A stretch of 64,000 nt of DNA, taken from an uncultured Clostridia bacterium (GTDB lineage Bacteria; Bacillota; Clostridia; TANB77; CAG-508). Made by a program: the position numbers and the translations under genes. The stretch is from assembly GCA_947385375.1 (NCBI GenBank), contig CANDKR010000006.1, positions 22,792 through 86,791 of the forward strand. Direction: 5' to 3'. The notes under the pieces were generated by a model that saw only the letters and a list, made by a program, of their open reading frames with translations, had not been told where the DNA came from and ran no database searches. Positions 21,998 through 27,969 of this stretch are shown piece after piece. Positions within the stretch are counted from its first letter, which is position 1. Each line of letters opens with the position of its first letter.

Positions 21998-23476
21998 ATG
22001 GAGAACTTAAATATATATCAAGATATCAAAAATAGAACTGAAGGAGATATATACATAGGAGTAGTAGGACCTGTAAGAACTGGAAAGTCAACTTTTATTA
22101 AGAAATTTATGGAATTGTTGGTTTTACCTAATATAGAAAATGGATACAAAAGAGAAAGAGCAATTGATGAACTTCCACAAAGTGCTGGTGGAAGAACAAT
22201 AATGACCACTGAGCCTAAATTTATTCCAAACGAGGCGGCTCAAATCACATTAAGTGATAATATTAAACTAAAAACAAGACTTGTAGATTGTGTTGGTTAT
22301 TTAGTTAATAATGCAATTGGCTATATGGAAGATGAAATGCCTAGAATGGTAAAAACTCCATGGTCAGACCAAGAAATGCCATTTGAAACAGCAGCAGAAC
22401 TTGGAACTAAAAAAGTAATTGTTGAACATTCAACAGTAGGTATTGTAATTACAACAGATGGCTCGATTACAGATATACCAAGAGAAGATTATGTTCAAGC
22501 AGAAGAAAGAGTTATTTCAGAATTAAAGGAAATGAATAAACCTTTTGTTATTCTAATGAATTGTTTAAATCCTTATGATTCATATAGCATAAACTTAGCT
22601 GAAGACTTGTCAAGAAAATATGGAACACCAGTTATACCAATAAATTGTGCTGATTTGAATTTAGAAGATATTAATAATATTTTCTCTAAAATCTTATATG
22701 AGTTTGCAATAGAGAGAATAAATGTAAATTTCCCAGCTTGGATAAATAGCTTAGACCTTACAAATAGTTTAAAACAAGACTTATATGCAAAAGCAAGAGA
22801 GACTTTTGAAGGTGTTAGCAGAATAAAAGATATTGGAAACTGTTATACCAAATTTACAGAATGTGAATCTGTTAAAGATGCAAAATTACAGCAAATAGAT
22901 TTAGGCACAGGTGAAGTTTTTGTTGATGTAGAAATTGAAGAAAGCTTATTCTATCAAATGATAAGCGAGATAAGTGGTCAAAAAATTGAAAATGAAGGGG
23001 ATCTATTTTTATGTGTTTCAAACTTTGCAAAAGTTAAGAAGCAATATGATAAAATGGCGTATGCTCTTCACGAGGTTAATGAAAGAGGTTATGGAATAGT
23101 ATCACCAGGAATTGATGACCTTATCTTAGAAGAACCAGAAATTGTAAAACAAGGTCAAAAATATGGTGTAAAACTTAAAGCTAAAGCTCCATCAATTCAT
23201 ATGATGAAAATTAGTACAGAAACAGAAGTATCACCAATTGTTGGTAGTGAAAAACAATCAGAAGATTTAGTAAAATATCTACTTTCAGAGTTCGAGAGTG
23301 ACCCTAAGAAAATTTGGGAATCTAACATTTTCGGAAAGAGCTTACATGAGCTTGTAAATGAAGGCTTACAAAATAAATTAGTAAGAATGCCAGAAGAGGC
23401 TCAAAAGAAACTTCGTGAGACTTTAGAAAGAGTAGTAAACGAAGGCAGTGGCGGATTAATTTGTATAATATTATAA
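21998..23476 (+). CDS. spoIVA: stage IV sporulation protein A (spore coat morphogenetic ATPase)
   Basis: N-terminus MENLNIYQDIKNRTEGDIYIGVVGPVRTGKSTFIKKFMELLVLPNI...ELPQSAGGRTIMTTEPKF is highly similar to SpoIVA. Confidence 0.9.
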   Translation: MENLNIYQDIKNRTEGDIYIGVVGPVRTGKSTFIKKFMELLVLPNIENGYKRERAIDELPQSAGGRTIMTTEPKFIPNEAAQITLSDNIKLKTRLVDCVGYLVNNAIGYMEDEMPRMVKTPWSDQEMPFETAAELGTKKVIVEHSTVGIVITTDGSITDIPREDYVQAEERVISELKEMNKPFVILMNCLNPYDSYSINLAEDLSRKYGTPVIPINCADLNLEDINNIFSKILYEFAIERINVNFPAWINSLDLTNSLKQDLYAKARETFEGVSRIKDIGNCYTKFTECESVKDAKLQQIDLGTGEVFVDVEIEESLFYQMISEISGQKIENEGDLFLCVSNFAKVKKQYDKMAYALHEVNERGYGIVSPGIDDLILEEPEIVKQGQKYGVKLKAKAPSIHMMKISTETEVSPIVGSEKQSEDLVKYLLSEFESDPKKIWESNIFGKSLHELVNEGLQNKLVRMPEEAQKKLRETLERVVNEGSGGLICIIL

Positions 23477-23513
23477 ACAAAATTCCAAGTGTAAAAACAC
23501 TTGGCTTTTTTGT
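23444..23513 (+). repeat. direct repeat, left copy: last 11 codons of spoIVA plus its terminator
   Basis: ggcagtggcggattaatttgtataatattataaacaaaattccaagtgtaaaaacacttggcttttttg recurs almost identically at 27900-27969. Confidence 0.8.
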
Positions 23514-23641
23514 TTTGTGAATTTTTTGTAAAATTTTAAATTTTTTTGCAACTATTTTGACATTTTTACCGTCTAATATTATATAGGGGAAAAATTAGAC
23601 ATTTTCCTTAAAAATTTTTATATAATGAAAGGGGGATTTTT

Positions 23642-27846: not shown

Positions 27847-27898
27847 AACCTTCACCAATTTTGGTGGAGGTTTCATTTTGTTAGTCTTGACAAACAAA
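27847..27898 (+). repeat. terminator hairpin plus TTGACA module, copy 1 (copy 2 at 28575-28626)
   Basis: aaccttcaccaattttggtggaggttt(c/t)attttgttag(t/c)cttgacaaacaaa occurs at both places. Confidence 0.75.
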
Positions 27899-27899
27899 A

Positions 27900-27969
27900 G
27901 GCAGTAGCGGATTAATTTGTATAATATTATAAACAAAATTCCAAGTGTAAAAACACTTGGCTTTTTTGT
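27900..27969 (+). repeat. direct repeat, right copy of the spoIVA 3'-end plus terminator segment
   Basis: Near-identical to 23444-23513, with G->A in the GSGG codons; it encodes a relic ...GSSGLICIIL stop. Confidence 0.8.

Follow-up and report, generated by a model that had tools for sequence, protein, structure and literature searches.

A strain-variable cassette site between spoIVA and dtxR in an uncultured gut Clostridia species, with a probable head-to-tail stack of two units

The spoIVA to DtxR locus

We describe an accessory island in the window—the whole 64-kb stretch of DNA analysed here—that lies between the sporulation gene spoIVA and a gene for a DtxR/MntR-family repressor. The locus reads spoIVA-R1-[930, 258, 175 aa]-R2|R1-[162 aa]-R2-DtxR, where R1 and R2 are two pairs of direct repeats and the genes are named by the lengths of their products; coordinates are collected in Table 1. 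The left flank is a full-length spoIVA encoding 492 aa, with complete matches to PF09547, PF20438, and PF20439 (SpoIVA_ATPase, E 5e-119; SpoIVA_middle, 2e-65; SpoIVA_C, 7e-38). On the right, the DtxR gene is followed by sufCBD-sufS-nifU. No composition break is seen at the island, GC being 0.23-0.33 throughout; the locus is AT-rich and has many weak repeats.

Table 1. Features of the spoIVA to DtxR interval (window coordinates)
Feature	Position	Strand	Remarks
spoIVA, intact, 492 aa, left core flank	21998..23476	+	SpoIVA Pfam domains; 3' half a mosaic of two haplotype families among strains
R1 copy a	23442..23513	+	Functional spoIVA tail (last 11 codons and stop); terminator 1, hairpin 23485-23504
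promA, promoter/leader of 930-aa gene	23514..23641	+	23514-23596 a diverged homologue of the region upstream of the 162-aa gene; four-way alignment
930-aa secreted protein	23642..26434	+	Signal peptide, acidic linker, ~200-aa repeats each with an SH3b domain, uncharacterised C-terminal domain
258-aa N-terminally anchored protein	26435..27211	+	Weak similarity to SurA N-terminal (chaperone) domain
Promoter-like site upstream of 175-aa gene	27216..27245	+	Perfect TTGACA-18-TATAAT, TG extension
175-aa single-pass membrane protein	27277..27804	+	Widespread unannotated family
R2 copy a	27847..27901	+	Terminator 2 hairpin 27847-27872; relic of DtxR promoter -35, no -10 box at sigma-70 spacing
Join point	27898..27901	+	AAGG common to R2 copy a and R1 copy b; sequence read directly
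R1 copy b	27898..27969	+	Relic spoIVA tail 27900-27932, no upstream ORF; second terminator 1, hairpin 27941-27960
promB, promoter/leader of 162-aa gene	27970..28071	+	promA homologue; closer to the promoter after spoIVA in sister-lineage allele C
162-aa membrane-anchored protein	28072..28560	+	Small family, 9 proteins
R2 copy b	28575..28629	+	Terminator 2 hairpin 28574-28601; functional -35 box of DtxR/suf promoter; identical to allele C R2
DtxR/suf promoter, intact	28615..28643	+	TTGACA-17-TATAAT; unchanged in empty allele
DtxR/MntR-family repressor, first gene of right core flank	28681..29121	+	Pfam Fe_dep_repress, Fe_dep_repr_C

Two pairs of direct repeats and a join between them

Comparison of the window with itself gives R1 as a direct repeat of 72 nt with 71/72 positions identical (23442-23513 / 27898-27969); the initial annotation had seen this repeat of the spoIVA tail and terminator at 23444-23513 / 27900-27969, within 2 nt of the ends found here. 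The spoIVA reading frame ends at 23476, inside copy a. Copy b carries the codons GGC AGT AGC GGA TTA ATT TGT ATA ATA TTA TAA, the same relic (GSSGLICIIL-stop) that had been read in it before. The remainder of R1 is terminator 1, a hairpin of the form CCAAGTGT-AAAA-ACACTTGG followed by a T-run, classed as terminator-like, with a folding energy of -16 kcal/mol (z = -5).

The 34-nt terminator part of R1 has exactly 2 matches at <=3 mismatches in the 64-kb window vs 0 expected, and only three repeat families of at least 40 nt occur in the whole window; R1 is therefore a local duplication and not a dispersed terminator family, one of the two conditions under which the original interpretation was to fall. 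Neither the terminator 1 nor the terminator 2 hairpin has further copies elsewhere in the window. Beyond R1 the similarity persists at lower identity (23442-23578 vs 27898-28037, 84% over 142 nt by BLAST), and the local alignment of promA with promB scores 48 vs 21 +/- 3 for shuffled sequences.

A second repeat pair, R2, had been missed; it lies at 27847-27901 / 28575-28629, is 52/55 identical, and consists of terminator 2 plus the -35 box of the DtxR/suf promoter. Copy a differs from the functional copy at 3/55 aligned positions, the last of which is one extra A at the junction with R1. The two relics, in R2 copy a and R1 copy b, adjoin directly and overlap in AAGG. One parent of the join is the DtxR promoter spacer (CAAACAAAGGG) and the other the spoIVA tail (TAAACGAAGGC); they share 8/9 bases across AAAC[A/G]AAGG, and the junction holds one A more than a clean AAGG crossover would leave. 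All 14 retrieved contigs with this junction, drawn from at least 10 independent metagenome assemblies, have it in identical form, and it is therefore no assembly artefact. This novel junction connects downstream-boundary sequence (a copy of 28575-28629) to upstream-boundary sequence (a copy of 23442-23513)—a downstream flank fused in this way to an upstream one is the mark of illegitimate head-to-tail joining at microhomology and not of an att site. The two units so stacked are not copies throughout: homology is confined to R1, the promoter region, and R2, and the genes differ. The relic flank copies are ~2-3% diverged from the functional ones.

Alleles in natural populations

Same-species metagenome contigs, ~99.5% identical, were sampled through the 23-24 longest-contig blocks per look-up, of ~600 for this DtxR or spoIVA. 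The DtxR gene is invariant in all of them. A shorter allele, whose absence was to count against the original interpretation, exists: in the empty form (L081, L083, L085), DtxR follows spoIVA after 124 bp with its own, different terminator, and the spoIVA tail is present without the 37-nt 3' half of R1. Measured against this allele the variable segment is 23477-28598, or 5.1 kb rather than the 4.4 kb first proposed; it takes in the 162-aa gene, formerly placed outside the island, whose homologues travel with those of the 930-aa and 258-aa genes elsewhere.

The full island was found in L082, L086, L088, L091, and L095, and the whole-island structure recurs in six or more contigs from independent samples; the island is present in 7 of the 17 longest DtxR contigs, and ~9 show the empty form. 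Two contigs (L084, L102) carry a 729-aa variant of the 930-aa gene, and one (L094, ERZ14499241, 5x coverage) has a spoIVA-R1-162-only arrangement. With empty, full, 729-aa, and 162-only forms, the site is indeed the strain-variable hotspot that had been suspected. The path of L094 crosses a 63-nt exact repeat, longer than the usual k = 55, and could be a mis-resolved assembly. A contig encoding a 99% variant of the 162-aa protein (P0136) begins inside R1 copy b. An allele with only [930-258-175] was not found in an exact look-up of the 175-aa protein, where the 162-aa gene lay downstream in 7/7 contexts shown. Scans of JGI metagenomes with a DtxR promoter 31-mer and a terminator-1 31-mer gave 0 matches each.

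In two contigs of a sister lineage (L116, L117), whose spoIVA tail is 100% identical in amino acids and ~91% in nucleotides, the same terminator 1 and the same R2 bracket a different cassette, here called allele C. It encodes proteins of 165 aa (162-like), 225 aa (175-like), and 443 aa (FtsK-like), with the 162-like gene before the 175-like gene. R1 and R2 therefore belong to the site itself, as native cassette boundaries of long standing. The nearest relatives beyond this (SpoIVA 89% and 83% identical) have a convergent 290-aa gene and unrelated genes after spoIVA, so they give no outgroup by which to polarise the empty and occupied states. A GTDB genome scan with SpoIVA gave a best match of 77% identity with no downstream synteny, unsuitable for an empty-site test.

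Over 26435-29121 there are zero SNPs in all island contigs vs 2-14 SNPs/kb in the flanks. Neither the island nor the empty allele is tied to one background: each is found with both spoIVA-tail haplotypes and with several sufC haplotypes. An SNP-free 3' part on several flank haplotypes suggests recent spread by homologous recombination; that the anchor region has itself recombined is shown by its mosaic spoIVA haplotypes. The description "old cargo island" is then half right: the diverged relics speak for age, and the SNP-free 3' 2.7 kb speaks against it.

Cargo genes

The three ORFs previously reported between the R1 copies are all present and encode 930, 258, and 175 aa. The 930-aa protein matches SH3_3 twice in Pfam (E 6e-13), and its gene contains a 603-bp in-frame tandem repeat (24122-24406 / 24725-25009) whose copy number varies, giving the 729-aa alleles. 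Searches of Pfam, NCBIfam, PHROGs, and PADLOC, together with PDB sequence and profile searches, found no toxin or enzymatic domain in it, only SH3_3; for its C-terminal part (AF2 model, pLDDT 63), the best Foldseek-PDB match had E 0.007 at probability 0.05. The family is rare, with 15 proteins in a collection of 5.8 billion clusters, where the 162-aa family has 9. In other genomes, 930-like modules occupy various places in the chromosome, and in one case an integrase gene lies ~9 kb away.

The 258-aa protein has Pfam matches to SurA_N_2 (E 5e-4) and SurA_N_3 (E 1e-3), both below the gathering score, and its homologues come after a big SH3 protein elsewhere as well (neighbours in L103, L104, and L105; BLASTP E 1e-28 to 1e-34). 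The 175-aa family is broad (499 representatives at E <= 1e-3, typically ~240 aa) and is absent from other 930-like modules. Homologues of the 162-aa protein are members of 930-like/258-like modules at other chromosomal sites and stand directly after spoIVA in allele C; its AF2 model (pLDDT 82.6) has no significant fold match in Foldseek-PDB. Homology between the 175-aa and 162-aa proteins was considered and rejected (BLASTP E 0.13; hhalign probability 4%). Across all the cargo, the Pfam, NCBIfam, PHROGs, PADLOC, and PDB searches, together with AF2 and Foldseek for the 930-aa C-terminal part and the 162-aa protein, gave only SH3_3 and sub-threshold SurA_N as leads to function. The 65-nt spacer between the 258-aa and 175-aa genes is free of gene remnants, as are the 14 nt that follow the 162-aa gene, and no tRNA target or RNA element was found in the island; the only RNA found was a glmS ribozyme, upstream of glmS.

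The cargo is a predicted extracytoplasmic module: a Sec-secreted protein with SH3b (cell-wall-binding) repeats, a SurA_N-like anchored helper, and small membrane-anchored proteins. A further reading, improbable in our estimate, takes the module as the Gram-positive, Sec-dependent equivalent of an effector-immunity locus, with the 930-aa protein as secreted effector, the SurA_N-like protein as its chaperone, and the 162-aa and 175-aa proteins as protective partners; the stacked, relic-flanked units and the effector-less alleles would then reflect successive displacement and retention of orphan genes. The 162-like and 175-like genes are seen without 930/258 genes in allele C and L094. Were this reading true, the SH3b-repeat protein would target the cell wall, and the array would resemble Rhs, CDI, and T6SS loci but with a housekeeping sporulation gene as its anchor. 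Any function assigned to these rare, unannotated cargo families would be new, and none is firmly pointed to.

Origin of the island

We consider it probable that the spoIVA-to-DtxR site is a cassette hotspot and that the 5.1-kb island consists of two units stacked head to tail by an illegitimate join. On this account R1 is a by-product of the flank duplication and not an att site, and the island is of an ordinary accessory kind. Each unit has the spoIVA tail, terminator 1, and a related promoter at its left end, and terminator 2 with the DtxR -35 region at its right. At the internal boundary (27847-27969), right flank is fused to left flank within the AAAC[A/G]AAGG similarity, as would be expected of an illegitimate event at microhomology. 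Most likely the locus existed as two different alleles, and additive integration or unequal exchange brought them together, placing a [930-258-175] unit upstream of a resident [162] unit. This may have proceeded by homology-facilitated illegitimate recombination anchored in spoIVA, or by Campbell-type re-integration of a circularised unit. Every unit carrying its own terminator and promoter would be insulated, which would leave the spoIVA 3' end and terminator and the DtxR/suf promoter intact, so that the stack is tolerated. Once formed, the island would move between strain backgrounds by homologous recombination in spoIVA and DtxR/sufC and erode through its own repeats—R1 x R1 recombination would leave the 162-only form, the putative origin of L094, and the 603-bp repeat in the 930-aa gene would yield the 729-aa form. 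Points against the preferred account are that the postulated [930-258-175] donor allele is unobserved among the contigs sampled, that the only 162-only contig is the low-coverage L094, and that the junction has its extra A.

The same join point and flanks would arise if one ancestral cassette (e.g. 930-258-162-175) had been tandemly duplicated from spoIVA tail to DtxR promoter by a microhomology join, followed by reciprocal gene loss or replacement, with no second allele. We judge this course rather unlikely. The placements of the 162-like gene, which precedes the 175-like gene in the sister allele, next to it, and goes with 930/258 genes elsewhere, would also fit one tandem duplication with several later deletions or replacements. 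The central block 175-R2|R1-promB-162 is the exact centre of a duplicated 162-175 unit, and the divergence of the relics would have allowed time to decay. However, at least 2-3 further precise deletions or replacements are required, all of them with an end at R1 or R2 or directly beside one of these; promA and promB, at ~68-85%, are far more diverged than the adjoining R1 (99%); and the 65-nt and 14-nt spacers that might have kept gene remnants hold none.

The insertion first proposed—a site-specific event that duplicated its target, leaving an integrase-less (CIME-like) remnant at the spoIVA 3' end with a replacement gene end and R1 as attL/attR—is very unlikely. Direct repeats that include a conserved gene's 3' end do bracket accessory DNA, L094 (one contig at 5x) resembles an empty site with a single R1, and one of the 930-like modules elsewhere has an integrase gene nearby. 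Against this, no integrase or recombinase domain was found in the island or, in the population contigs, in genes called within ~10 kb on either side, as the initial annotation had itself noted of the integrase, and the 930-aa gene has no match among phages, plasmids, or viral contigs. The common empty allele is without the terminator half of R1, so R1 is not a simple attB, and in the sister lineage R1 and R2 bracket another cassette. The right end, moreover, is host sequence: it matches the DtxR terminator/promoter 0.7 kb further downstream at 52/55 positions and runs straight into a copy of the spoIVA tail. Integration of att type does not yield such a join, and head-to-tail, duplication-type joining does. 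In an AT-rich region with many weak repeats one might suspect an error of assembly, or a terminator motif that is dispersed or recurs by chance, but this is refuted by 71/72 identity where no match is expected, by the restriction of the motif to two copies in the window, and by the recurrence of the structure in island-spanning contigs from independent samples.

The apparent integration scar thus becomes, under the preferred reading of two stacked units, a readable record of integrase-free cassettes being stacked, exchanged, and eroded at a hotspot in an uncultured gut Clostridia species, with an explicit join point and several alleles caught in natural populations. The locus offers a worked example, and no new principle: a repeat of a target gene's tail does not by itself imply site-specific integration.

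Comparison with known systems

Intervening elements such as skin in sigK are known in sporulation genes. The island shares with them its position as accessory DNA beside a mother-cell sporulation gene; unlike them, it leaves spoIVA uninterrupted, has no recombinase, and shows nothing that suggests developmental excision. A skin-like element was rejected on the first two grounds. Islands at tRNA and tmRNA genes, ICESt-type elements at fda, and CIMEs insert at a gene's 3' end and restore the gene. As in these, the target gene is left intact and its 3' end is part of the direct repeats; in contrast to them, there is no recombinase, the right end is host flank, and one half of what would be the att core is missing from the empty allele.

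Tandem duplications that arise independently of RecA, with join points at short homologies, have been described for Salmonella and E. coli. The present locus resembles them in its novel junction, which runs from downstream to upstream sequence over a few bases of similarity, and in having direct repeats that can later recombine and collapse; it differs in that only the flanks and promoters are homologous, the gene content of the units being different.

An analogous displacement mechanism has been proposed for T6SS effector-immunity arrays and Rhs loci, and Kirchberger et al. (2017, PMC5361080) attribute the V. cholerae T6SS arrays to homology-facilitated illegitimate recombination, with reference to Jackson 2009, Poole 2011, de Vries & Wackernagel 2002, Prudhomme 2002, and Meier & Wackernagel 2003. 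As in Rhs C-terminal displacement, CDI orphan modules, and T6SS arrays, a new module would have been added upstream and an older small gene pushed downstream, the displaced gene being preceded by a relic 3' end of the conserved upstream gene; there is likewise no integrase, the content between conserved flanks is strain-variable, and mosaicism is seen in the flanking genes. Unlike those arrays, the locus has no recognisable toxin or immunity domain in domain, profile, and structure searches; its anchor is the housekeeping gene spoIVA rather than the effector gene itself, and a copy of the downstream flank, the DtxR promoter, has also been duplicated, which gives the explicit join point.

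Structure of the spoIVA-DtxR interval

The end of spoIVA is locally duplicated in the window. The first copy of this 72-nt repeat (R1a) comprises the last 11 spoIVA codons and stop, then a strong terminator hairpin, terminator 1 (CCAAGTGT-AAAA-ACACTTGG), with its T-run; the coding content of the second copy (R1b) is GSSGLICIIL-stop only. The repeat is present as the initial annotation described it, and the widespread terminator family considered there as an alternative source is not found—the terminator part occurs exactly twice in the 64-kb window against zero expected occurrences, and the only three repeat families of at least 40 nt in the entire window all lie within the spoIVA-DtxR region. 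R1 was duplicated locally; it does not belong to a dispersed terminator family.

The initial annotation overlooked another repeat pair, R2. It consists of a hairpin, terminator 2 (AACCTTCACC-AATT-TTGGTGGAGGTT), followed by TTTTGTTAGCCTTGACAAACAAAGG, the -35 region of the DtxR/suf promoter. Its first copy, R2a, lies directly upstream of R1b and shares an AAGG overlap with it; the parental sequences are alike at this join (CAAACAAAGGG in the DtxR promoter, TAAACGAAGGC in spoIVA), and one extra A is found at the junction. With genes named by protein length (aa), and promA and promB denoting the promoter regions ahead of the 930-aa and 162-aa genes, the order is spoIVA..R1a - promA - 930 - 258 - 175 - R2a / R1b - promB - 162 - R2b..DtxR. 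Here the downstream flank runs straight into the upstream one, which marks a head-to-tail (duplication-type) join. The two units remain homologous beyond R1, into their promoter regions (score 48 vs 21 +/- 3 for shuffles), with 84% identity over 142 nt for R1 and promoter together. An assembly artefact is excluded: the 14 fetched contigs with this junction, which come from at least 10 independent assemblies, all show it in identical form.

Coordinates of features and contigs of alleles (window positions unless a contig is named; slashes separate repeat copies)
Feature	Position or contigs	Strand	Remarks
glmS ribozyme/riboswitch	20421-20581	-	Rfam RF00234, 90.8 bits; upstream of divergent glmS, as expected
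382-aa protein gene	20770-21918		directly upstream of spoIVA; N-terminal hydrophobic segment
spoIVA ORF	21998-23476		all three SpoIVA Pfam domains present
R1a / R1b	23442-23513 / 27898-27969		71/72 identical
Homology beyond R1	23514-23596 / 27970-28050
603-bp in-frame tandem repeat, 930-aa gene	24122-24406 / 24725-25009		within 24083-25290
Clustered SNP tract, 930-aa gene	24787-24836
Promoter of 175-aa gene	27216-27245		own, perfect promoter
R2a / R2b	27847-27901 / 28575-28629		52/55 identical
R2a-R1b overlap	27898-27901		AAGG
DtxR/suf promoter	28615-28643		perfect TTGACA-17-TATAAT; serves DtxR-family repressor and suf operon
sufD	31291-32341		apparent frameshift; break at A6 run near 31870-31881, other frame to 32341
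sufS	32341-33562		apparent frameshift; frame left near 33380 (CAAAATGTATGTGTG); conserved C-terminus in ORF 33383-33562
443-aa protein gene	L116 1455-2786		FtsK/SpoIIIE motor domain; no visible N-terminal membrane domain or gamma domain
Empty allele	L081, L083, L085		124 bp intergenic, spoIVA stop to DtxR
Full-island allele	L082, L086, L088, L091, L095		same as window
729-aa allele	L084, L102		729 aa in place of 930 aa; one 603-bp in-frame repeat fewer
162-only allele	L094 (one contig)		spoIVA-R1 straight into promB and 162-aa gene

Alleles and movement among strains

Exact-protein look-ups yielded many metagenome contigs from this species, with about 99.1-99.97% identity to the window. The interval varies among them, with empty, full-island and 729-aa alleles; the strain-variable hotspot proposed initially is borne out, and the suggested comparison with related strains recovers a shorter, empty allele. 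This empty allele has a different terminator (AAAAAACGAAG-AAAA-CTTCGTTTTTT) after the spoIVA stop, then TTGTTAGCCTTGACA. About nine of the 17 longest contigs with this DtxR are empty and seven have the island; index blocks number 613 for DtxR vs 116 for the 162-aa and 101 for the 175-aa protein. The 162-only allele would fit an origin by R1 x R1 deletion, its cassette being identical to the window's, but it is weak evidence, coming from a contig with 5x coverage that crosses a 63-nt exact repeat. The 175-aa gene lies directly ahead of DtxR in none of the contigs seen by look-up of its protein.

Positions 26435-29121 have no SNPs in any island contig, and the flanks have 2-14 SNPs/kb. Island and empty alleles are each found on both spoIVA-tail haplotypes, and, not more than a few hundred bp from the island edge, sufC haplotypes are likewise reshuffled with respect to presence or absence of the island. 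Such a pattern is expected when a single island haplotype has recently spread through homologous recombination in the immediate flanks. The join itself is older than this spread, since 3-4 changes over about 127 nt separate relic from functional copies: R1b has one or two substitutions, according to spoIVA haplotype, and R2a has two substitutions plus the extra A.

Relatives and the age of the boundaries

In two contigs of a sister lineage (L116, L117; allele C) the spoIVA tail shows 100% identity at the protein level and about 91% at the DNA level. It is followed by the same terminator 1, a promoter whose left part matches promA and right part promB, genes for proteins of 165, 225 and 443 aa, and an R2 identical to R2b. 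The 165-aa and 225-aa proteins are homologues of the 162-aa (53% identity) and 175-aa (55%) proteins; the 443-aa protein is soluble and FtsK/SpoIIIE-motor-like. Because this lineage has terminator 1 and R2 around another cassette, R1 and R2 are native, long-standing boundaries of a cassette site with content turnover. The genes that follow spoIVA in the nearest other relatives (SpoIVA 89% and 83%) are unrelated, and synteny is absent in GTDB representatives (SpoIVA at most 77%); hence the ancestral state cannot be polarised. As a side observation, the 443-aa protein occupies the same spoIVA-DtxR site, with a chromosomal paralogue or a mobile-element remnant as alternatives.

Origin and tolerance of the stack

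The initial annotation read the segment as an insertion that duplicated its target, the spoIVA tail. That reading fails as a site-specific event: R1 is half of a composite join point, produced by illegitimate-recombination stacking of two cassette units. An attL/attR element is opposed by the lack of any integrase or recombinase domain in the island or within about 10 kb on each side (in agreement with the earlier remark that no integrase remains), of a tRNA near the island, of a break in GC content, and of phage, plasmid or viral-contig relatives of the 930-aa gene. It is also opposed by the supposed element's end, which is host flank sequence (R2a), and by the common empty allele, which is without the terminator half of R1.

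The simplest single event would be an addition in which two alleles of the locus were joined, a unit [R1-promA-930-258-175-R2] coming to lie upstream of a resident [R1-promB-162-R2]. One end of the incoming unit would have been resolved in spoIVA homology; at the other, incoming DtxR-promoter sequence would have been joined illegitimately to the resident spoIVA tail. This would be homology-facilitated illegitimate recombination, for which unequal exchange or the re-integration of a circularised unit are equivalent descriptions. An origin by the same logic has been suggested for orphan-immunity arrays at T6SS, Rhs and CDI loci (PMC5361080). The main rival is tandem duplication of one ancestral unit, then differential loss. 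Homologues of the 162-aa protein are indeed part of 930/258-like modules elsewhere (967-232-242-133-111-237 in L104, 800-253-129-224 in L105), and because the 162-like gene precedes the 175-like gene in allele C, the central block 175-R2/R1-promB-162 resembles the centre of a duplicated 162-175 unit. However, this route would require several further precise deletions, and promA and promB have diverged far more than the adjacent R1. Common to both routes is the part that is shown, a microhomology-mediated head-to-tail join.

From its anatomy, we infer that the stack is tolerated thanks to its layout of promoters and terminators. spoIVA retains its complete reading frame and terminator 1; the 930-aa and 258-aa genes lie behind promA, the 175-aa gene has a promoter of its own, and the unit is closed by terminator 2. 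The relic DtxR -35 box is not followed by a -10 box at sigma-70 spacing, and the relic spoIVA tail has no upstream ORF and is followed again by terminator 1. The 162-aa gene would be driven by promB, ahead of terminator 2 and the intact DtxR promoter.

Cargo proteins

The locus clearly exemplifies a known type of genome dynamics, with uncharacterised cargo. The 930-aa protein has a signal peptide, an acidic linker and two or three repeat units, which are about 200 aa long and contain an SH3b domain apiece (Pfam SH3_3, E 6e-13). Its C-terminal region (about 300 aa) has no detectable relatives outside a 15-protein family, and the mediocre AF2 model of this part (pLDDT 63) gives no significant PDB fold match. 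The 258-aa protein has an N-terminal anchor and a weak likeness, below Pfam thresholds, to the SurA N-terminal chaperone domain. A large family of unannotated membrane proteins (499 representatives) includes the 175-aa protein; the family of the 162-aa protein has nine members, and the two families are unrelated. For the 162-aa protein the AF2 model is good (pLDDT 82.6): it shows a transmembrane helix and a small alpha/beta domain, and it has no fold match. Signal or anchor sequences, read directly, predict an extracytoplasmic location for all four products; one can say no more than that they may form an envelope-associated module around a cell-wall-binding secreted protein, and an effector/immunity role is speculative.

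The copy number of the 603-bp repeat differs between strains (930 vs 729 aa), and the clustered SNP tract looks like gene conversion between its units. Homologous modules, in which a big SH3b protein is combined with a 258-like protein and with small anchored proteins, occupy three different chromosomal sites in other Clostridia contigs (L103, L104, L105). Their signal peptide MKKI..SMIIIIELLCFCNTTIAMAM is nearly identical to that of the window in L103 and L105, with overall identity of 41-59%; L104 contains a pair of 258-like paralogues, and a gene for a tyrosine integrase lies about 9 kb away.

Flanking genes

The spoIVA 3' half (22680-23449) has 12-14 SNPs/kb, apparently all synonymous; they form a mosaic of two haplotype families, and among strains its breakpoints are several. 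On the glmS side there are about 2-3 SNPs/kb. This indicates a recombination-rich zone adjoining the variable site. The 382-aa gene keeps its place ahead of spoIVA in every allele, and some relatives (L004, L006, L007, L011) have weaker homologues upstream of spoIVA; the sole database match of its product is short, to a phage long-tail-fibre connector family (phrog_16097, E 4e-6). Downstream, split calls for sufD and sufS (196+85 aa, 371 aa) recur in most independent population contigs spanning these genes, so the breaks are real, reflecting decay or possibly programmed frameshifting.
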